Shown here: one piece after another, positions 12,865 through 44,408 of the stretch | Layout: every line of letters begins with the position of its first letter | How positions within the stretch are numbered: the first letter of the stretch is position 1 | Origin: Escherichia coli | Lineage (GTDB): Bacteria > Pseudomonadota > Gammaproteobacteria > Enterobacterales > Enterobacteriaceae | Length of the DNA stretch: 64,000 bases | Strand: one strand, 5' to 3' | Assembly: GCF_044324875.1 (NCBI RefSeq) | Contig: NZ_CP172186.1 | Notes under the pieces: model-generated | Told to the model about the DNA's origin: nothing | Databases searched by the model: none | Seen by the model: the letters and a program-made list of their open reading frames with translations, nothing else | Made by a program: the position numbers and the translations under genes

Positions 12865-13071
12865 GCGCATGCAAAATGGCATCTGAATCGATCGCAGTTT
12901 GGCATTCGAATCGATCATGATTTGGCATCCATCTCCGATCACAGTTTGGCATCACAATCGATCACGATTTGGCATGCTTCCGATCATTGATTGGCATCCT
13001 GCCAGTCACTCCGGGAATTAACTCTTTTCACCACAGTCTCCATTGCCGTGTTTAAACCAGTGGAGACGTCA

Positions 13072-14637
13072 ATGTCCAGAAAGAGAAAATCCAGGAGCAC
13101 TATGGAAACCTGTTTTAAGATCCTTCAGCTCAAGTTCGACAAGAAGCTGACTAACCGTTGTATCGGACTGACGTTACACATCAGCGCCTCAACCGTTTTT
13201 GAGGTTCTTGCCCGCTTCAAAGCCTCTTCTCTGTCATGGCCATTACCTGCTGATATATCCCATGACACGCTGGAGAAACTCATTTTTCCGCCCAAAGACA
13301 CCTTTGCATCAGAGCTTGTAATGCCTGACATGTTGTACTTCGATACGGAAATGAGAAAACCAGGTGTGACGCGGCAACTGTTGTGGATGGAATACAAGGC
13401 ACAGGCGGGTAACAAAGCGATGGGATACTCGCACTTCTGCCGTTGCTACCGGGAGTGGAAAAAAACGCGACGTCTCTCCATGCGCCAGGAGCATCGTGCC
13501 GGCGAAAAGCTTTTTATCGACTTCTGTGGTCCTACGGTTCCTGTTATTAATCCGGACACCGGTGAGATACGCCGCGTGGCAATCTTCGTGGCCGTAATGG
13601 GGGCGTCCAACTATACCTACGTTGAAGCGTGCGAAGGTCAGGACATGATGTCATGGTTAAATGCCCACAGCCGTTGCCTGACCTTCCTGGGCGGCGTACC
13701 GAAGCTGCTCATCCCCGATAACCTCAGAAGCGCAGTGAAAAAGGCCGATCGATATGAGCCTGTCATCAACGACAGTTATCAGGCACTGGCTGAGCACTAT
13801 GGCACGGTTATCATCCCGGCCCGACCACGCAAACCTAAAGATAAACCAAAAGCAGAAAACGGCGTCCTCATCGTTGAACGATGGCTTCTTGCCCGCATCC
13901 GTAATGAAACCTTCCACACGCTCAGGGCGCTGAATGCGCGCCTTAGGGAGTTACTGACAGACATGAATAACCGGCCAATGAAGGGGTACGGCAATCAAAC
14001 CCGTGCAGAACGCTTCCGCATACTGGATGCGCCAGCACTCTCTCCGCTGCCTCTGGCACCTTATGAATACACGGAATACAAAGCTGTGAAGGTTGGCCCT
14101 GACTACCACGTTGAATATGCCCGTCACTGGTACTCCGTTCCACACGAACTGGTCGGTCAGCGTCTGTCACTGAAGGCGGGGCAGTCGGTGGTACAGCTCT
14201 GGCACAAGGGGCAGTGTGTGGCGCAACATCCGCGCAGCACACATGAATATAAACACACAACCAATCCGCTTCACATGCCAGAGCGCCACCGGCAGCACGG
14301 GACATGGACACCGGAACGCCTGATCGAGCAGGGAAAACGTACGGGCCCGTCCACAGGCCGGGTGGTTGAATCCATGCTGAAGGCAAAACCCCATCCGGAA
14401 CTGGCTTATCGTGCAGTTCTGGGGCTGCTGGCACTTCAGAAAAAATACGGCCCGGAACGGCTGGAAAAGGCCTGTTACGTTGCCCTGCACTATAACGCCC
14501 CTGACAGACGCTTTATCGACAATCTGCTGCGTCACCATCGGGAGAACCTGGAGCTTCCATTATCCCGCCAGGGCGAACAACATCCGGCATATGCTTCAGA
14601 GCATGAAAACCTGCGTGGTCCGGGCTACTACCACTGA
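13072..14637 (+). CDS. istA: IS21-family transposase IstA
   Basis: ~521 aa, HTH N-terminus and DDE integrase core; start chosen at MSRKRKS after GGAGACG RBS. Confidence 0.85.
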   Translation: MSRKRKSRSTMETCFKILQLKFDKKLTNRCIGLTLHISASTVFEVLARFKASSLSWPLPADISHDTLEKLIFPPKDTFASELVMPDMLYFDTEMRKPGVTRQLLWMEYKAQAGNKAMGYSHFCRCYREWKKTRRLSMRQEHRAGEKLFIDFCGPTVPVINPDTGEIRRVAIFVAVMGASNYTYVEACEGQDMMSWLNAHSRCLTFLGGVPKLLIPDNLRSAVKKADRYEPVINDSYQALAEHYGTVIIPARPRKPKDKPKAENGVLIVERWLLARIRNETFHTLRALNARLRELLTDMNNRPMKGYGNQTRAERFRILDAPALSPLPLAPYEYTEYKAVKVGPDYHVEYARHWYSVPHELVGQRLSLKAGQSVVQLWHKGQCVAQHPRSTHEYKHTTNPLHMPERHRQHGTWTPERLIEQGKRTGPSTGRVVESMLKAKPHPELAYRAVLGLLALQKKYGPERLEKACYVALHYNAPDRRFIDNLLRHHRENLELPLSRQGEQHPAYASEHENLRGPGYYH

Positions 14638-14653
14638 CAGAAGGAACAACAGT

Positions 14654-15409
14654 ATGAGTGATAACCTGTTAAACAAACTGACCCAACTGAAACTCCCGGC
14701 GATGGCCGGGAGCCTGATACGGCAGCGGGAAACGCCTCAGACCTACGACGAACTGTCGTTCGAGGAAAGGCTGACGCTGCTGGTTGATGACGAGCTTCTG
14801 AGCAGGGAAAACAGCCGTGTGGCACGGTTGAGAAAAAATGCCGGCCTGAAATACCAGGCAACACCGGAAGGGCTGCGCTATCCGGCCTCAAGAGGTCTGC
14901 GGGCTGAACAGATGAGAGAACTGCTGAACGGCCACTACATAACCCACAGGAAAAACCTGCTGATAACCGGTCCGACAGGATGTGGCAAGAGCTGGATAGC
15001 CAATGCGCTGGGCGAACAGGCATGTCGACAGAAACACAGCGTCCGGTACTGTAGAACCGGGCGATTACTGGAACAACTGGCTCAGGGACGTGTTGATGGC
15101 AGCTGGCTGAAATATCTGAAACAGTTGCAAAAAATACAGGTTCTAATCCTGGACGATCTGGGGCTGGAACAGTTAAGTAACGCCCAGTGTAATGACCTTC
15201 TGGAGCTCATAGAGGATCGTTACGGACAAAGCAGCACGATAGTGGTAAGCCAGTTCCCGGTAGATAAATGGCATGGTCTGATGGAGAACCCAACAACAGC
15301 AGATGCCATCCTGGACAGACTGGTACATAACTCACACCGAGTGGTCCTTCAGGGAGAGTCACTGAGGAAAAATCCCCCGGTAGTGGAAAGCAGCGAAAAA
15401 ACGCGTTAA
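14654..15409 (+). CDS. istB: IS21-family helper ATPase IstB
   Basis: 251 aa; Walker A LLITGPTGCGKSW, Walker B ILILDDLG. Confidence 0.9.
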   Translation: MSDNLLNKLTQLKLPAMAGSLIRQRETPQTYDELSFEERLTLLVDDELLSRENSRVARLRKNAGLKYQATPEGLRYPASRGLRAEQMRELLNGHYITHRKNLLITGPTGCGKSWIANALGEQACRQKHSVRYCRTGRLLEQLAQGRVDGSWLKYLKQLQKIQVLILDDLGLEQLSNAQCNDLLELIEDRYGQSSTIVVSQFPVDKWHGLMENPTTADAILDRLVHNSHRVVLQGESLRKNPPVVESSEKTR

Positions 15410-15509
15410 AAAGCGGTAGAAAAAGTTAAGTTCCCGGTTGATCGAATGGATGCGAATCGCTGATCGGACTTCGATGCCAATCCGTGATCGAATAGAGCGG
15501 AATACGCAA

Positions 15510-20308: not shown

Positions 20309-20527
20309 ATGACGATTGCAGAACGTCTTATACAGAAAGGTTTCGACGAGGGTTTTAAAGAAGGTTTTAAACAAGGTTTTAAACAAGGTTTTAAACAAGG
20401 AGCTCTTGAAGTGGCGCGGGAAATAGCCTGCCGGCTTCGGGATATAGGCTGGTCGCCGGAACGGATTCAGGAGGTCACGGGACTTTCCGGTGAAGAACTG
20501 AAAAAGCTGTTTCCTGATGAGCAGTAG
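20309..20527 (+). CDS. free-standing Rpn C-terminal-tail (RpnS-like) small protein with GFKQ repeats
   Basis: 72 aa MTIAERLIQKGFDEGFKEGFKQGFKQGFKQGALEVAREIACRLRDIGWSPERIQEVTGLSGEELKKLF; parallels the last ~50 aa of the upstream Rpn (MTIAERLEQKGALEKALAIARQLQKMGMTPEQIKQATGLSEAELKKVIH); AGGAG RBS. Confidence 0.65.
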   Translation: MTIAERLIQKGFDEGFKEGFKQGFKQGFKQGALEVAREIACRLRDIGWSPERIQEVTGLSGEELKKLFPDEQ

Positions 20528-36296: not shown

Positions 36297-38570
36297 TTAA
36301 TGTCCGGGCCACTCCTGTTGTTCAGTGACGTGATGTGATATTTCTTCTTTAGCTGTAGCCTCATTCTGGAGGTTTGAAGTAAATATACGCTCCATTGTTT
36401 GTGCAACCGATGGTGGCATTTTTTCTTCCACACGTTCCTCTTCCGGACAACTCTGTGTGATATAGCATACGTGCCGTTCTTCCCGGGATGTGGTATTGAT
36501 GATGTGAACTGCCTTGTTCCACAGGCTGTTTCCCCGGGCAGAGATATCTGTATCATATTGCGGAAGCAGATCCAGCGATGTTTGTGTTTCGTTAAGCTGC
36601 TTCTGGAAGGTATCGATGATACGGTAAGGCTCTGTACGGTTTTTACGACGTTTACGGGATGGTTTTGCTGTCAGTACACCAATAATGCTGCTGACATGCT
36701 CCGGTGTGGGAAAACGGCGCTGCACTGTCCTGGGGACGAGACGGCGGAGACGCTCCAGGCGGGGGGCTTCAACGGAAATATAGCGGTTGATGACCACCGG
36801 ATCACTGTCGCAACTTTTCTCGCTGTCCGGAATATACACAGAGGCTGACGGCACCACATCCCCCTGGAAAACGGTAAAGAACTCACCGGCATTCAGTCTG
36901 ATCAAATCCTGCACGTCGATTTTGCTTTCCATCTGGATGGTGATCTGGTTACCGTCCACCCAGGACTCACCCATCACACCATCGTGGCGCTGCAGGCTGC
37001 CCATTCTGGCCCGAGCCTCTTCACCGGCGGCATTTTTCACCGTTCTTGCCGTTTTGTCGTCACTGACAATGCGTCCGGCGAATTTGGTGCCGGCGTTCTG
37101 CATCAGTGTGGCGGTGTTGGTGGCGGAGGTCTGCCCTTCAATTCGCTCCTGATCCTGCGCCATCATTATCAGGGAAAACTCCAGTGAACGTACCTGGGTG
37201 GCCTCCACAGCAATGCGGTCTGTGTAGTAGGCACCGACTTCGTCAAGGATACAGATATAGGGGAAGCGGCCTTTGTATTTTTTTACTTCCAGGGTCTGTG
37301 CGTCTGTGCCTTCCAGGCGGTAGCCCAGGTCACGGGCGAGGATCATGCTCTGCTGGGTGATGAACATACGACCGAGTGCCGACGTGGTATGGGCTGATGT
37401 GTCCAGTGCGGGGATCATCACAATCAGAATTCGGTCGCTGTGGATACTGTCGCGAATATCGATGTCGCCGGCATCTGCCGCAAAGACGTCCCCGAAGGTT
37501 TCGGCAAAGGTTGTGAATGTTTCCGAGAACTGACCGGAGAGATAAGCATGCTGTTTACGGGGCTCCTCAGTCCAGGCTGACGGCGTTCTCACCAGTGACA
37601 TATCGAATCCCGGAACGTCCTGCAGGTAATTTCTCAGTGGTGCGATGGCTTCTTCCGGCCACTGGTCATCAAGCCCACGGCAATAGAGTTTTGCCATACC
37701 TTCCAGCGTCATATGCTCCCGTAACATCTGCAGGGACATGGTTTTTCTTTCCCGGACGCACCAGAATTTTGTGCCAAAGACCAGGGCTTTGTTCATGGCT
37801 ATCGCCCGTGACTGCCATTCACCCCCCTGAACGTTCTGGGGAAGCATGGACTGCATGGTTTCGGCGGTGAAGGCTTCGGTGCTGAATGCGAACGGGTTCC
37901 AGGTGTTTGACTGTGGGCGGGATTTTTCGCCGCTCTGAATGATTTCACTGCGGGATTTTCCGCCGTTCATGAAGTTGATGACCTCGATATCATCCTCCCG
38001 GCCAAAACGTCGGGAGAGATACCAGATTGTCCTCGTGGTATCGTTCTGTGCCTTTCCGTCAACAAAGGTAAAGCCTCTTCCCCAGCAGAGAGGGTTGAGC
38101 AGCCAGGCAAAGGTGGTTTCTGTTTTACCGCCACCGGTGGTGGAAAAAAATATGATATGCCGGGTGAGGTCATCCATGCTCAGCCAGAGCTCACGACCGA
38201 TATCGTTGATACGGCGGTAACCGACATAAAAAATCCCCCGTGCGGGGGATGTTTCATCTGCTTCATACTGAAACAGGGTGGGCCAGAAGCTGAAGAGGCT
38301 TCGCCTGACCTTTCTGTCCTGGGAGGGGTCATCAAGGCTGAGCGTCATGGGCATACGCAGGGGGCATCGCCAGCGTTGCAGCGTGAATATCACGGAGGTG
38401 ACCAGGGTGAACAGCAGACAGACAGGAAGGGCCAGTGGCCATATCAGGGCCGTAATGATACTGCCGGCCAGACACAGACCAATGATGTTCAGGTTGTGCA
38501 GTGCATTCCACAGCGGGTTTCCCCAGGCCGTGCGGTGTATGAGGTCAGGATTAACGTGATGCTGGCTCAT
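36297..38570 (-). CDS. trbC: TrbC, conjugative coupling-type ATPase (N-terminal membrane segments, Walker A)
   Basis: 757 aa; ...FFSTTGGGKTET... Walker A; size/order as IncI1 trbABC. Confidence 0.8.
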   Translation of the reverse strand: MSQHHVNPDLIHRTAWGNPLWNALHNLNIIGLCLAGSIITALIWPLALPVCLLFTLVTSVIFTLQRWRCPLRMPMTLSLDDPSQDRKVRRSLFSFWPTLFQYEADETSPARGIFYVGYRRINDIGRELWLSMDDLTRHIIFFSTTGGGKTETTFAWLLNPLCWGRGFTFVDGKAQNDTTRTIWYLSRRFGREDDIEVINFMNGGKSRSEIIQSGEKSRPQSNTWNPFAFSTEAFTAETMQSMLPQNVQGGEWQSRAIAMNKALVFGTKFWCVRERKTMSLQMLREHMTLEGMAKLYCRGLDDQWPEEAIAPLRNYLQDVPGFDMSLVRTPSAWTEEPRKQHAYLSGQFSETFTTFAETFGDVFAADAGDIDIRDSIHSDRILIVMIPALDTSAHTTSALGRMFITQQSMILARDLGYRLEGTDAQTLEVKKYKGRFPYICILDEVGAYYTDRIAVEATQVRSLEFSLIMMAQDQERIEGQTSATNTATLMQNAGTKFAGRIVSDDKTARTVKNAAGEEARARMGSLQRHDGVMGESWVDGNQITIQMESKIDVQDLIRLNAGEFFTVFQGDVVPSASVYIPDSEKSCDSDPVVINRYISVEAPRLERLRRLVPRTVQRRFPTPEHVSSIIGVLTAKPSRKRRKNRTEPYRIIDTFQKQLNETQTSLDLLPQYDTDISARGNSLWNKAVHIINTTSREERHVCYITQSCPEEERVEEKMPPSVAQTMERIFTSNLQNEATAKEEISHHVTEQQEWPGH

Positions 38571-39669
38571 TGTGATTATCCTCGGTATCTGTGGCTTTCA
38601 GGAACAGGCTGACGGTAGTGGCGTCTTTCAGGATGCCGGACGGCAGGTGCCAGCCGGTATCGGATAACACCCATGGGGTACCGCCAAAACCGAACTGGCG
38701 GAAAGCCTGGTTATTGACATCGATGGCAGCACGAGCAGCGGTCAGACACTTTTCATCCGGTGCAGCCGGTGCATCGCCGGTGGGTGCCATACCACCGTCT
38801 GCGGAATACAGCTGATGCCATCCGGTCGCCCGTTTTTGTGCGTCCGGTTCACACAGCAGTGGCGCAGTCCGGTTTGTGCTGGCCTCTCCGCCGATTACGG
38901 AGACCGGATAAATCACCACGCTGAATTCCCGGGCCAGTTGCTTAAGCGCGGGCTCCAGAAGACGGCAGTTGATGCATGCGGGGTCAAGGAAGGCGTAGAG
39001 TGTGCGTTCATGACCAGTGGAGAGATTAATGGTGAACATACCCCGGTCCGCGTTGCGTTTAAGTACAGTGGCCAGATTACGGCGGGCTTCAGCGACCAGA
39101 GTATTTTTGTCTGCTGTTATCGCCGGGGTAGCGGATGTCTCCTGCATTTCCTGTGATGCCGGGTGAACGATTTCATTTTTCGTCTCTGACGGGGCTACTG
39201 ACCGGACAATTTCCTTGTCGATGTGTAATGGTGCTGTTTCTGTTACGGATTCTGTGACAGGTACCCTGAGAGGGGAATCGCTGTCCGGTTTCAGTAAAAT
39301 ATATCCGGCTGTTACCGCTGTCAGAAGTGCCAGCACTAATCCTGCACCGTATATCAGCCCTCTCATGAAGCTGGTTTTCCGGGCAGGAAGTTCTGCATAT
39401 GCCGCGCTCAGACAGCTGTCAATCGCGGAGAGCATTCTGCCGATGTGATGTCCGGGACGTTCAGTATCAACGGTATCAACAAGCAGTGTTTCGGTTATTT
39501 CACGAAAAGGGGTGCTGAAGGACAGGTGCATCAGCCTGTTATTACGGTTAATCAGTGCGCCCAGTTCTGTAACCGGCAGGATGGCAATAACCTCCTGACC
39601 ACCGTCAGGGTACAGGGCGGTCAGGGACAGGTGTTTATTGTTCAGTGTTGCAGTGTAGCGGATGGTCAT
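38551..39669 (-). CDS. trbB: TrbB, thioredoxin-fold (DsbC-like) conjugation protein
   Basis: 372 aa; C-x-x-C motif PACINCRLL. Confidence 0.75.
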   Translation of the reverse strand: MTIRYTATLNNKHLSLTALYPDGGQEVIAILPVTELGALINRNNRLMHLSFSTPFREITETLLVDTVDTERPGHHIGRMLSAIDSCLSAAYAELPARKTSFMRGLIYGAGLVLALLTAVTAGYILLKPDSDSPLRVPVTESVTETAPLHIDKEIVRSVAPSETKNEIVHPASQEMQETSATPAITADKNTLVAEARRNLATVLKRNADRGMFTINLSTGHERTLYAFLDPACINCRLLEPALKQLAREFSVVIYPVSVIGGEASTNRTAPLLCEPDAQKRATGWHQLYSADGGMAPTGDAPAAPDEKCLTAARAAIDVNNQAFRQFGFGGTPWVLSDTGWHLPSGILKDATTVSLFLKATDTEDNHNEPASR

Positions 39670-40982
39670 TGTGCTTTTTCCTTGTCGGCGGGATGCTGTT
39701 TTTCGGTGGTTTCGGTGGTTTCGGTGGTTTCGGTGGTTTCGGTGGTTTCGGTGGTTTCGGTGGTTTCACCAGTGTCAGTGTCTTCGTCGTTATCATGGCG
39801 GCGGGGTATCACGTCATCCGTGAGTGACCAGCGGGTCCTGATCTGACGTTTACGATCGCGATCTGGCTGAGGTTCGTCCCATATCAGGCCCAGCCCCAGC
39901 ATGTCCCGTCGAAGCCCTTCAATGGCCTCTTCCACACAGGGTTCCGGGCAGGGGAGGCCGAGACGGCTGGCTTCATTTTCTGCCCGGGCAACGGCCACCA
40001 CGCCGGCCCCTTCGATGAAGCCTTTTGTGGTGTTTGCCCGGTGAAGGGCATAGAAGAGCGTCCGGTCAACGCCCTTGAGCCACAGCCAGTTCGGAGGCGT
40101 CAGGCGCAAATCATGTGCGTAAAGCCAGACCAGACCGCTGCGAACGTAACGGTGCTGCCTGAGCCACTTTTGTGCGCCTTCTGTTTTGATGACCCGGATA
40201 AAGGCGTTTCTGGCCAGTGAATACACCGGCGTGCTGAAACGCCCCTGGTCCCGTTTACTTTTGAGCCTGCAGGAGAGATTGAGGTTGTTCATCAGGGCTA
40301 CCGCTGCTTTCCGGTCACCGAGGAAGAACTGCAGGCCAAAGATGGCAAAGAGCGCTTTTTCATGTGGGGCCATGTCTTTCCAGCTGGTCAGTGGTTGCCC
40401 CAGTTGCGCCATGAAGCACTGGCGTGTGGACGCAACATCGAGCTGCATGTTGCGGATAAGGTTGTTCTGCTCCACAAAGGCTTCGGGGGTTAGTGCGACA
40501 CGGCGCTCGGGACGTTTTTGTCCGTGGAAGAGTCTGTTGTTGTCTCCGTCAGCCAGAACGGGGGCGATCGCCGGTGACAGAGCTGAAAAAATATGGGGCA
40601 GTGTGTGGATATTCAGTGGCCTGCGGGTAAAACGGGGCTGGGCCGGATGGTGAAACCACATCCACAGAAAGCCGAATGTCATGGGAAGCAGAATCAGCCA
40701 GAGGATCCCCACTGTCCGGGACATAACATCCAGCCACTGGCTGAAAGTGATGGTTGCCGCGTTGTTAGCAGTGATGGCCAGCAGGTTGTAACGGGGGACG
40801 GCAAAGTTGTGAAAGGGCCCCCAGTCAATCATGCCCCACAGTGTGTGCAGGATCAGGCAGGAGGCGAAGACGATTTCAGGTAAAAAGCGCCAGATGATAA
40901 TCGCAAAGAGCAGGCATATGGCACCGACGATATACCATATAGCCATTGGATCTTCGGCGGCAGACGTCTGTTGGTAAGACAC
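39666..40982 (-). CDS. trbA: TrbA conjugation protein with C-terminal TET repeat
   Basis: 438 aa, N-terminal membrane segments; ends ...TGETTETTETTETTETTETTETTEKQH... Confidence 0.75.
   Translation of the reverse strand: MSYQQTSAAEDPMAIWYIVGAICLLFAIIIWRFLPEIVFASCLILHTLWGMIDWGPFHNFAVPRYNLLAITANNAATITFSQWLDVMSRTVGILWLILLPMTFGFLWMWFHHPAQPRFTRRPLNIHTLPHIFSALSPAIAPVLADGDNNRLFHGQKRPERRVALTPEAFVEQNNLIRNMQLDVASTRQCFMAQLGQPLTSWKDMAPHEKALFAIFGLQFFLGDRKAAVALMNNLNLSCRLKSKRDQGRFSTPVYSLARNAFIRVIKTEGAQKWLRQHRYVRSGLVWLYAHDLRLTPPNWLWLKGVDRTLFYALHRANTTKGFIEGAGVVAVARAENEASRLGLPCPEPCVEEAIEGLRRDMLGLGLIWDEPQPDRDRKRQIRTRWSLTDDVIPRRHDNDEDTDTGETTETTETTETTETTETTETTEKQHPADKEKAQ
39700..39770. repeat. tandem 9-bp repeat (GGTTTCGGT x ~7) inside trbA
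   Basis: Visible tandem array; encodes the TET repeat on the minus strand. Confidence 0.8.
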
Positions 40983-41438
40983 GGGGATTCCTCCATAGAT
41001 GAATGGATAAATTTCGGGATTAAGTCGGGTGGCATGAATGCGAATCAGCGCCGGTAATAACCGGACAGGAATGAATTCAACAGGACATTTTTACAGAGAA
41101 GAGCGAACGGCAGAAGGTGGTGGGAGACAGGTACAAAAAAACCGACTGGTGAGGCCGGTTTTTTTGCGATTCCGGGGTGGAGTTGGTGGCTCTGACCGGA
41201 GGAAGTCTCTTTTCAGCTAACAATGAGAGAGCTGTTGTGACAGGCAATGTAAGAGTAAGCAGCAGTGATTTCCTCCATTGACGGAGAAACGGATGATTAA
41301 CCTGTTAATCATCGTTCTCAGGGCGGTTGTTGCTGTGGCTAACGCAGTGATAGCTCTCCGGGAACTGGTTGACTGATAATCCCGGAAACGTACTTAAGGG
41401 CAGAGGGTCACCTCCTTCTGCCCTTTAACAAAATATGC

Positions 41439-41615
41439 TCAGGTTAAAAATCGAAAACCTTCCTGCACTTCCTGTGCCTGTTCCCGTGAGCCAAACATGA
41501 GCCGGCTTTTACCCGGAACTCCCCAGGAAATATATTCTACATCCACCCACCATTTTCCGTATTCTTCATACGGTCCGGATATCACTTTAGTGACAAATGC
41601 ATCAATCAGGTTCAT
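41439..41615 (-). CDS. hypothetical small protein (58 aa) not in the ORF track
   Basis: MNLIDAFVTKVISGPYEEYGKWWVDVEYISWGVPGKSRLMFGSREQAQEVQEGFRFLT; GAAAGGTG RBS; IS21-family copy 2 lies ~70 bp upstream. Confidence 0.3.
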   Translation of the reverse strand: MNLIDAFVTKVISGPYEEYGKWWVDVEYISWGVPGKSRLMFGSREQAQEVQEGFRFLT

Positions 41616-41785
41616 TTTTACACCTTTCTGTTATTCTGCTTATTACGACCAGCAGACAGCAAATATTAAAAATAACGCGGCGGTAATGCGTATTCCGCTC
41701 TATTCGATCACGGATTGGCATCGAAGTCCGATCAGCGATTCGCATCCATTCGATCAACCGGGAACTTAACTTTTTCTACCGCTTT

Positions 41786-42541
41786 TTAACGCGTTTTTTC
41801 GCTGCTTTCCACTACCGGGGGATTTTTCCTCAGTGACTCTCCCTGAAGGACCACTCGGTGTGAGTTATGTACCAGTCTGTCCAGGATGGCATCTGCTGTT
41901 GTTGGGTTCTCCATCAGACCATGCCATTTATCTACCGGGAACTGGCTTACCACTATCGTGCTGCTTTGTCCGTAACGATCCTCTATGAGCTCCAGAAGGT
42001 CATTACACTGGGCGTTACTTAACTGTTCCAGCCCCAGATCGTCCAGGATTAGAACCTGTATTTTTTGCAACTGTTTCAGATATTTCAGCCAGCTGCCATC
42101 AACACGTCCCTGAGCCAGTTGTTCCAGTAATCGCCCGGTTCTACAGTACCGGACGCTGTGTTTCTGTCGACATGCCTGTTCGCCCAGCGCATTGGCTATC
42201 CAGCTCTTGCCACATCCTGTCGGACCGGTTATCAGCAGGTTTTTCCTGTGGGTTATGTAGTGGCCGTTCAGCAGTTCTCTCATCTGTTCAGCCCGCAGAC
42301 CTCTTGAGGCCGGATAGCGCAGCCCTTCCGGTGTTGCCTGGTATTTCAGGCCGGCATTTTTTCTCAACCGTGCCACACGGCTGTTTTCCCTGCTCAGAAG
42401 CTCGTCATCAACCAGCAGCGTCAGCCTTTCCTCGAACGACAGTTCGTCGTAGGTCTGAGGCGTTTCCCGCTGCCGTATCAGGCTCCCGGCCATCGCCGGG
42501 AGTTTCAGTTGGGTCAGTTTGTTTAACAGGTTATCACTCAT
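41786..42541 (-). CDS. istB: IS21-family IstB (copy 2)
   Basis: Protein identical to copy 1 IstB. Confidence 0.9.
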   Translation of the reverse strand: MSDNLLNKLTQLKLPAMAGSLIRQRETPQTYDELSFEERLTLLVDDELLSRENSRVARLRKNAGLKYQATPEGLRYPASRGLRAEQMRELLNGHYITHRKNLLITGPTGCGKSWIANALGEQACRQKHSVRYCRTGRLLEQLAQGRVDGSWLKYLKQLQKIQVLILDDLGLEQLSNAQCNDLLELIEDRYGQSSTIVVSQFPVDKWHGLMENPTTADAILDRLVHNSHRVVLQGESLRKNPPVVESSEKTR

Positions 42542-42557
42542 ACTGTTGTTCCTTCTG

Positions 42558-44123
42558 TCAGTGGTAGTAGCCCGGACCACGCAGGTTTTCATGCTCTGAA
42601 GCATATGCCGGATGTTGTTCGCCCTGGCGGGATAATGGAAGCTCCAGGTTCTCCCGATGGTGACGCAGCAGATTGTCGATAAAGCGTCTGTCAGGGGCGT
42701 TATAGTGCAGGGCAACGTAACAGGCCTTTTCCAGCCGTTCCGGGCCGTATTTTTTCTGAAGTGCCAGCAGCCCCAGAACTGCACGATAAGCCAGTTCCGG
42801 ATGGGGTTTTGCCTTCAGCATGGATTCAACCACCCGGCCTGTGGACGGGCCCGTACGTTTTCCCTGCTCGATCAGGCGTTCCGGTGTCCATGTCCCGTGC
42901 TGCCGGTGGCGCTCTGGCATGTGAAGCGGATTGGTTGTGTGTTTATATTCATGTGTGCTGCGCGGATGTTGCGCCACACACTGCCCCTTGTGCCAGAGCT
43001 GTACCACCGACTGCCCCGCCTTCAGTGACAGACGCTGACCGACCAGTTCGTGTGGAACGGAGTACCAGTGACGGGCATATTCAACGTGGTAGTCAGGGCC
43101 AACCTTCACAGCTTTGTATTCCGTGTATTCATAAGGTGCCAGAGGCAGCGGAGAGAGTGCTGGCGCATCCAGTATGCGGAAGCGTTCTGCACGGGTTTGA
43201 TTGCCGTACCCCTTCATTGGCCGGTTATTCATGTCTGTCAGTAACTCCCTAAGGCGCGCATTCAGCGCCCTGAGCGTGTGGAAGGTTTCATTACGGATGC
43301 GGGCAAGAAGCCATCGTTCAACGATGAGGACGCCGTTTTCTGCTTTTGGTTTATCTTTAGGTTTGCGTGGTCGGGCCGGGATGATAACCGTGCCATAGTG
43401 CTCAGCCAGTGCCTGATAACTGTCGTTGATGACAGGCTCATATCGATCGGCCTTTTTCACTGCGCTTCTGAGGTTATCGGGGATGAGCAGCTTCGGTACG
43501 CCGCCCAGGAAGGTCAGGCAACGGCTGTGGGCATTTAACCATGACATCATGTCCTGACCTTCGCACGCTTCAACGTAGGTATAGTTGGACGCCCCCATTA
43601 CGGCCACGAAGATTGCCACGCGGCGTATCTCACCGGTGTCCGGATTAATAACAGGAACCGTAGGACCACAGAAGTCGATAAAAAGCTTTTCGCCGGCACG
43701 ATGCTCCTGGCGCATGGAGAGACGTCGCGTTTTTTTCCACTCCCGGTAGCAACGGCAGAAGTGCGAGTATCCCATCGCTTTGTTACCCGCCTGTGCCTTG
43801 TATTCCATCCACAACAGTTGCCGCGTCACACCTGGTTTTCTCATTTCCGTATCGAAGTACAACATGTCAGGCATTACAAGCTCTGATGCAAAGGTGTCTT
43901 TGGGCGGAAAAATGAGTTTCTCCAGCGTGTCATGGGATATATCAGCAGGTAATGGCCATGACAGAGAAGAGGCTTTGAAGCGGGCAAGAACCTCAAAAAC
44001 GGTTGAGGCGCTGATGTGTAACGTCAGTCCGATACAACGGTTAGTCAGCTTCTTGTCGAACTTGAGCTGAAGGATCTTAAAACAGGTTTCCATAGTGCTC
44101 CTGGATTTTCTCTTTCTGGACAT
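42558..44123 (-). CDS. istA: IS21-family IstA (copy 2)
   Basis: Protein identical to copy 1 IstA. Confidence 0.85.
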   Translation of the reverse strand: MSRKRKSRSTMETCFKILQLKFDKKLTNRCIGLTLHISASTVFEVLARFKASSLSWPLPADISHDTLEKLIFPPKDTFASELVMPDMLYFDTEMRKPGVTRQLLWMEYKAQAGNKAMGYSHFCRCYREWKKTRRLSMRQEHRAGEKLFIDFCGPTVPVINPDTGEIRRVAIFVAVMGASNYTYVEACEGQDMMSWLNAHSRCLTFLGGVPKLLIPDNLRSAVKKADRYEPVINDSYQALAEHYGTVIIPARPRKPKDKPKAENGVLIVERWLLARIRNETFHTLRALNARLRELLTDMNNRPMKGYGNQTRAERFRILDAPALSPLPLAPYEYTEYKAVKVGPDYHVEYARHWYSVPHELVGQRLSLKAGQSVVQLWHKGQCVAQHPRSTHEYKHTTNPLHMPERHRQHGTWTPERLIEQGKRTGPSTGRVVESMLKAKPHPELAYRAVLGLLALQKKYGPERLEKACYVALHYNAPDRRFIDNLLRHHRENLELPLSRQGEQHPAYASEHENLRGPGYYH

Positions 44124-44408
44124 TGACGTCTCCACTGGTTTAAACACGGCAATGGAGACTGTGGTGAAAAGAGTTAATTCCCGGAGTGACTGGCAGGATG
44201 CCAATCAATGATCGGAAGCATGCCAAATCGTGATCGATTGTGATGCCAAACTGTGATCGGAGATGGATGCCAAATCATGATCGATTCGAATGCCAAACTG
44301 CGATCGATTCAGATGCCATTTTGCAGGTAAAAATGGCAATTTTTTTCATGCTGTATTTTTGCCATTTATTTTCTTTGAAATGGTTTTTTTCTTCATATCA
44401 GCAAATAA

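Follow-up and report, generated by a model that had tools for sequence, protein, structure and literature searches.

Whole-unit copy-number variation of an in-frame 9-bp tandem repeat in trbA of IncB/O/K/Z plasmids

The trbA locus and its 9-bp array

The trbA coding sequence is located at 39666..40982 on the minus strand of the window, the whole 64-kb stretch of DNA that was analysed, and encodes 438 amino acids plus the stop codon from a GTG start. The ORF was assigned from its Pfam, PDB and IncI1 TrbA matches; its limits are the same as those of the RefSeq trbA in a related plasmid (L013), and near-identical public plasmids annotate this 438-aa ORF as “IncI1-type conjugal transfer protein TrbA.” Next in the operon comes trbB (38551..39669, minus strand), which encodes a DsbC/thioredoxin-like protein of 372 aa annotated as “DsbC family protein” in public plasmids, and it is followed by trbC (36297..38570, minus strand), whose 757-aa product scores above the cut-off of NCBIfam TrbC_conju (E 1.3e-303) and is the DotL-like type IV coupling protein in the I-type system. 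The sequence and the ORF coordinates place the stop codon of trbA (TGA) and the start codon of trbB (ATG) in an ATGA overlap at 39666..39669 on the minus strand, and a Shine-Dalgarno-like AAGGA motif was found 8 nt upstream of this overlap.

TrbA matched the Pfam family DotM_C (PF23127) with an E value of 1.6e-47 and 162 bits against a cut-off of 27. The match covered residues 185–358, the DotM C-terminal cytoplasmic domain region, which corresponds to 39909..40430 on the minus strand. The TrbA profile also matched the Legionella DotM/IcmP structure 6sz9_B over profile positions 5–359 (E 2e-19). The score with the NCBIfam DotM equivalog NF033890 (70.7 bits) was far under its cut-off of 230, indicating that TrbA is a divergent DotM homologue and not an equivalog. 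These matches identify TrbA as the subunit of the DotM/IcmP family in the coupling complex for type IVB (I-type) conjugation. It resembles the Legionella DotM/IcmP (PDB 6EXA-E, 6SZ9) in having the C-terminal cytoplasmic domain and in the proximity of its gene to that of a DotL-like coupling protein, trbC. The importance of this operon in conjugation is known from previous studies, in which transfer was abolished in the trbA::Cm mutant of pMS7163B (PMC10286972) and in the trbA deletion of pCT (PMC6868128), and conjugation was lowered on loss of trbB (PMC10286972). When the arrays of pCT and pMS7163B, both conjugation-proficient, were read directly, each was found to carry a 5-unit trbA allele. 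Since both plasmids need trbA for transfer, the 5-unit allele, at least, is functional.

The array is located at the 3′ end of trbA. Tandem Repeats Finder reported it at 39701..39767 with a period of 9, 7.4 copies, 100% matches, 0 indels and a score of 134, and direct reading of the plus strand at 39702..39767 gave TTC(GGTGGTTTC)7 in the context ...GGGATGCTGTTTTTC(GGTGGTTTC)7ACCAGTGTCAGTGTC.... On the minus (coding) strand, it reads (GAAACCACC)7GAA with GAAACCACC as the unit. The array showed a lag-9 self-match of 58 consecutive bases, which is far beyond chance, and a tandem repeat scan found it to be the sole perfect short-period array within the window. It is in frame with trbA and encodes (ETT)7E as residues 406–427, so that the C-terminus of the protein reads ...DNDEDTDTG-ETTETTETTETTETTETTETTE-KQHPADKEKAQ*, or ...RRHDNDEDTDTG-(ETT)7E-KQHPADKEKAQ*. 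The ATG of trbB lies 31 nt downstream of the array end. An earlier note on this DNA had described a 9-bp repeat of about seven units at the 3′ end of trbA encoding a (TET)n tail. Both the reading and the program bear out this description: the unit given there, GGTTTCGGT, is a rotation of GAAACCACC, and (TET)n and (ETT)n denote the same tail. Other ORFs running across the array (PPKPPK..., GGFGGF..., VVSVVS... and RWFRWF...) were rejected as mere products of the repeat read in other frames or on the other strand.

The position of the array in the protein was analysed on an AlphaFold2 model built on an alignment of 18 sequences; the exact TrbA of the window is absent from the protein collection, and the cluster of P0001 was used in its place. 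The model (mean pLDDT 72.7) was helical up to residue 364. Residues 375–438 (39669..39860, minus strand) had pLDDT below 50, with block means of 30–39, and were without secondary structure; together with the C-termini of the homologues, they mark a predicted disordered tail. Within this tail, residues 375 to about 392 (PDRDRKRQIRTRWSLTDDV) are conserved in the homologues. In the homologue alignment, conservation runs to about residue 392 (...DEPQPDRDRKR.I.T.WSLTDDV, with W385 nearly invariant) and then ends, and the region from about residue 395 onwards, including the array, is lineage-specific. Thus, the array comes after both the DotM-like fold and the last conserved motif, in a tail predicted to be disordered. 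The Legionella DotM, unlike TrbA, is without an (ETT)n tail, and the array is an addition to the DotM/TrbA family and not a family feature.

The C-termini of the TrbA homologues outside IncB/O/K/Z (P0003–P0040) were also compared. Nearly all of them end in a short acidic stretch and a terminal Phe (...TDNEF, ...DDEQPF, ...DDSPF and ...DESF, for example), and this conserved C-terminal feature is replaced in the repeat-bearing lineage. Another homologue, P0047 (462 aa), has a long Pro/Ala-rich tail instead of the acidic-Phe end.

Carrier plasmids and copy number of the array

The plasmids carrying the array were searched by megablast using 341 bp around it as a query. The query matched 471 PLSDB records (395 from Escherichia and 60 from Shigella) and 392 RefSeq E. 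coli records, the latter in 380 of the 5,426 complete genomes (~7%). The fetched matches were typed by MOB-suite as IncK2/Z or IncI-gamma/K1, and the reference plasmids pCT (IncK1), pTMSA970 (IncK2) and NC_022996 (IncZ) were among those matched; the IncB/O reference plasmid R805a was found in the protein search only. Both the synteny of trbA-trbB-trbC and the homology to IncI1 TrbA, which characterize TrbA of the I-complex, are present in the window. The IncI1-type TrbA (about 1,500 records) showed ~76–77% protein identity, but the array was absent and the search alignment ended at residue 394. The TrbA of the IncI1 plasmid pS1400_89 (R64/ColIb-P9 type), for instance, has 402 aa and ends in ...LPRTPATDNEF without the repeat. 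It shares with the window 76% identity over 401 residues, the order trbA-trbB-trbC and the motif ...DEPQPDRDRKR.I.T.WSLTDD, whereas in IncI1 an 18-nt spacer, and not an ATGA overlap, lies between the trbA stop and the trbB start. Similarly, TrbA homologues at 60–70% identity have 401–406 aa with the short acidic stretch and Phe at the end, and are without the array. The absence of the array from these proteins indicated that, within the I-complex, the (ETT)n tail is confined to the IncB/O/K/Z branch. Thus, the IncI plasmid setting proposed in the earlier note stands for an I-complex TrbA and not for IncI1 proper, because the near-identical matches were typed as IncK2/Z or IncI-gamma/K1 and the IncI1 TrbA has no array. 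During these searches, NZ_CP016548.1 and several E. coli genome records showed at least two places matching the trbA-trbB junction (up to four per genome, and one place on a chromosome), which suggests that duplicated or integrated I-complex transfer regions may occur in these genomes.

The number of units was determined in systematic spread samples of 59 of the 471 PLSDB records and 58 of the 392 RefSeq E. coli records, from collections that partly overlap. The match spans ranged from 287 to 395 bp, and in all 117 sampled matches the length difference to the window was an exact multiple of 9 bp, corresponding to 1–13 units. In the PLSDB sample (n = 59), the units:records were 1:6, 2:7, 3:3, 4:4, 5:6, 6:10, 7:7, 8:4, 9:3, 10:4, 11:1, 12:3 and 13:1; in the RefSeq E. 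coli sample (n = 58), they were 1:7, 2:13, 3:4, 4:7, 5:6, 6:5, 7:4, 8:3, 9:3, 10:2, 11:2, 12:1 and 13:1. The distribution over the 117 matches was therefore broad and without a preferred length. One record was fetched per match-span class and the arrays were read directly, giving 13, 12, 11, 10, 9, 8, 7, 7, 6, 5, 5, 5, 4, 3, 2, 2 and 1 units in the 17 plasmid loci, which include the window, pCT and pMS7163B. Furthermore, an exact-pattern scan of metagenome contigs, in which loci were selected only for at least two units, returned 25 loci. Twenty-three of these were trbA tails, 20 with 2–10 or 16 units and three ending inside the array; the count of 16 is provisional, as it comes from one metagenome contig of 5x coverage (L023) and long arrays are near short-read length.

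Over the 17 plasmid loci and 23 metagenome contigs, the array thus ranged from 1 to 16 units, and it was perfect except for one 2-unit allele having a single synonymous change (ACC>ACT). No frame shift and no loss of the ATGA overlap with trbB were found in any allele read. These observations agree with the expectation in the earlier note that unit number may vary between isolates (1–13 units in plasmids and 2–16 in metagenome contigs) and change the length of TrbA without a frameshift; the comparison of repeat number across related plasmids that it proposed was carried out, and the number was clearly not invariant. Some alleles of 1–2 units, which like the contig-end cases were read by eye from the translations, had a different 3′ junction (GAAACC-CGG-CAT, encoding ...ET-RHPAD) and look like an unexpanded proto-repeat.

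The tempo of this variation was assessed in 30 loci by comparing the 800 bp to either side of the array. Groups with 0 differences over these 1.6-kb flanks carried 7/7/10/11/12/16, 3/6/9/13, 4/5/6/9 and 2/4/5/6 units, although the plasmid loci had been picked to represent length classes and the identical-flank groups are thus partly selected and not a random sample. The picture was unchanged with 2.6-kb flanks, which showed 0–1 differences. Unit numbers that differ on identical 1.6-kb flanks indicated that the array changes much faster than point mutations accumulate. The backbones of the groups were up to ~10% divergent and the identical perfect unit was present in all of them, as expected from repeated gain and loss (concerted evolution).

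Origin and effect of the length variation

The array has head-to-tail short units, it differs by whole units among relatives and it varies on identical backgrounds, all of which are features of a variable-number tandem repeat (VNTR). We consider it likely that it is a hypervariable in-frame VNTR of the IncB/O/K/Z trbA, driven by slippage or unequal exchange and near-neutral in effect. Whole units would be gained or lost when the perfect 9-bp units misalign, either as the plasmid replicates or through unequal exchange between its copies. As 9 is a multiple of 3, each such event would add or remove one Glu-Thr-Thr triplet with the frame intact, and the trbA stop codon and the ATGA-coupled trbB start would be preserved as well. 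Recurrent gain and loss would keep the units identical to each other. Slippage as the mechanism and the near-neutrality of the length changes are what we infer from these patterns. The length changes would be tolerated as a near-neutral polymorphism because the repeat is past the fold and the conserved motif, in a predicted disordered tail that is absent from IncI1, and the best reading is that the array has little or no functional effect. The acidic tail found in all the homologues counts against the near-neutral reading, as its acidic character could have a function.

In-frame coding VNTRs are used for MLVA typing in enterobacteria, for example the Salmonella STTR loci including the plasmid-borne STTR10 on pSLT. 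The trbA array is like them in its perfect short units of a multiple of 3, in the gain and loss of whole units, in copy numbers differing between near-identical isolates and in keeping the frame. Unlike them, it is present in a conjugation gene of IncB/O/K/Z plasmids and hence marks the plasmid and not the host lineage. Similarity was also seen with the phase-variable contingency loci of Neisseria, Haemophilus and Campylobacter, where a perfect tandem repeat in or near a gene undergoes slipped-strand mispairing with high-frequency heritable variation. The contingency loci, however, are built of 1–8-nt units whose length is not a multiple of 3, or are located in promoters, and they work by ON/OFF switching, whereas the unit of trbA is 9 nt; the frame, the stop codon and the trbB overlap were kept in all the alleles and no promoter was found. 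Since no trbA allele shifts the frame, the array represents a length polymorphism and not a phase-variable contingency locus. A description of this repeat was not found in the openly searchable literature on trbA, IncI1, IncK, IncK2 and 9-bp repeats, and the 9-bp repeat reported in PMC8004404 adjoins pilJ, outside trbA. The array is therefore ordinary in kind, and this instance of it is previously unremarked.

The possibility of the tail length being functionally tuned was considered, with the acidic (ETT)n tail modulating the coupling complex, as a spacer or a Glu-rich pseudo-substrate, or affecting the translational coupling of trbB, and with slippage acting as a heritable and reversible rheostat of transfer. 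Basic patches on the Legionella DotM, a homologue of TrbA, are known to bind effectors by their acidic, Glu-rich C-terminal peptides (PMC5802825). A short stretch of acidic residues at the C-terminus is kept in all the close homologues, the array ends just 31 nt upstream of the coupled trbB start, and trbA is essential for conjugation. Against this, most of the arginines of DotM that bind Glu-rich peptides are not conserved in TrbA: among R196/R197, R217 and R314/R315, R314 is the sole one with a conserved counterpart in the aligned TrbA (R307). In the PDB alignment, a 13-residue insertion that is absent from TrbA contains R196 and is bordered by R197, and R217 aligns with D203. A low conservation of these peptide-binding arginines was noted in PMC5802825 as well. 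Furthermore, the tail was docked nowhere by AlphaFold (pLDDT about 30–39), the 1–16 units are spread broadly with no preferred length and vary freely on identical backbones, the IncI1 plasmids conjugate without such a tail, and the unit changes leave both the frame and the ATGA overlap untouched. We therefore regard functional tuning as unlikely. Its more specific form, in which the tail would be a length-adjustable acidic “E-block-like” segment that competes with or spaces substrate recruitment at the I-type coupling complex and thus serves as a dial on conjugation efficiency or cost, a rheostat and not an ON/OFF switch, is quite improbable. The pseudo-substrate idea in particular was little supported, with only the R314/R307 pair conserved and the tail undocked in the AlphaFold model, and was kept as a low-probability case.

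A role of the array at the DNA or RNA level, with the protein tail being incidental, would require iterons, an internal trbB promoter or an mRNA structure. Direct repeats that lie near the start of a gene may serve as binding sites, and the array is close to the trbB start; yet functional iteron sets are not expected at 1 to 16 copies on identical backbones, the 9-bp period does not fit the helical repeat, and the sister IncI1 lineage has no counterpart. In addition, no sigma-70-like promoter matches were found in 39400..40100, and 201 nt of mRNA at the trbA/trbB junction folded no better than its shuffles (z = −0.97); the prediction left the A/C-rich units essentially unpaired, the MFE structure showing just a few isolated 2-bp pairs and the centroid none. 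Such a cis-acting role appeared highly improbable. An internal terminator was also considered and rejected, as the three terminator-like matches were all weak and on the non-coding (+) strand. Sequencing or assembly artefacts as the source of the copy-number differences were given almost no weight. Short-read assemblies do break at the array, as seen with partial TrbA proteins and with 3 of the 23 metagenome contigs, and arrays of 13–16 units (120–147 bp) are near the Illumina read length. The differences were, however, always of whole perfect units (117/117 sampled matches), and many laboratories and platforms have contributed the finished “complete” plasmid records, numbering in the hundreds, in which they were seen. 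Single short reads span the arrays of 2–10 units (21–93 bp), and alleles are common to independent records, as in the case of pCT, pMS7163B and p50579417_2, which encode an identical TrbA of 432 aa (WP_001402878.1).

Typing, assembly and the surrounding region

The array has its main use as a practical and fast plasmid-typing marker, and it also calls for care in assembly and in the calling of alleles. Resistance genes including blaCMY-2 and blaCTX-M-14 are spread in poultry, food and people by the IncK1, IncK2, IncZ and IncB/O plasmids, and an array that varies while the flanks of 1.6–2.6 kb are unchanged could separate plasmid transmission chains too recent for SNPs to resolve. The same variation inflates the apparent diversity of TrbA alleles (2,525 member sequences in one 90% cluster), and in gene-by-gene typing it may cause plasmids that are near-identical to appear distinct. 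At its extreme C-terminus, this DotM-like subunit can accommodate from 3 to about 50 additional residues, which is useful for tagging TrbA. An effect of tail length on transfer, if there were one, would amount to tunable conjugation control of a new kind, and the present evidence leans against it.

The effect of the array on assemblies was seen in the “partial” TrbA proteins of draft genomes, P0002 (405 aa, 96 member sequences) and P0056 (406 aa), which stop exactly at the first array unit, and in the metagenome contigs L019, L021 and L038, which end inside the array. These partial proteins and contig ends together indicated that the array is a recurrent contig break point in short-read assemblies.

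Other repeats were noticed in the window. Two IS21-family elements of 2,639 bp each, 100% identical and in inverted orientation, are located at 12870..15508 and 41687..44325 and bracket about 26 kb including trbABC. They encode an IstA-like protein of 548 aa with rve/Mu-transposase domains and an IstB of 332 aa, and their ends account for the 23/47-bp tandem repeats at 12877..12998 and 44196..44318. Recombination between these inverted identical copies could invert the segment of transfer genes between them. When compared with L013 and L002, both of them related plasmids, the element at 41687..44325 represents a simple insertion accompanied by a 5-bp duplication, and it sits between a 58-aa ORF upstream of trbA and a thermonuclease gene. 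A 12-bp tandem repeat, GGTTTTAAACAA, was found at 20337..20400 with 4.2 copies and 97% match, and was also called with a period of 24. The interval from trbA to the 58-aa ORF (about 41000..41440 of the window) differs among relatives, including L005 and L014, in having one or two copies of dqlB, a DinQ-like type I toxin gene, and in the spacer lengths; the homologous trbA-to-traY interval of IncI1 plasmids, for example between trbA and pndA, is an insertion hot spot (PMC8004404).
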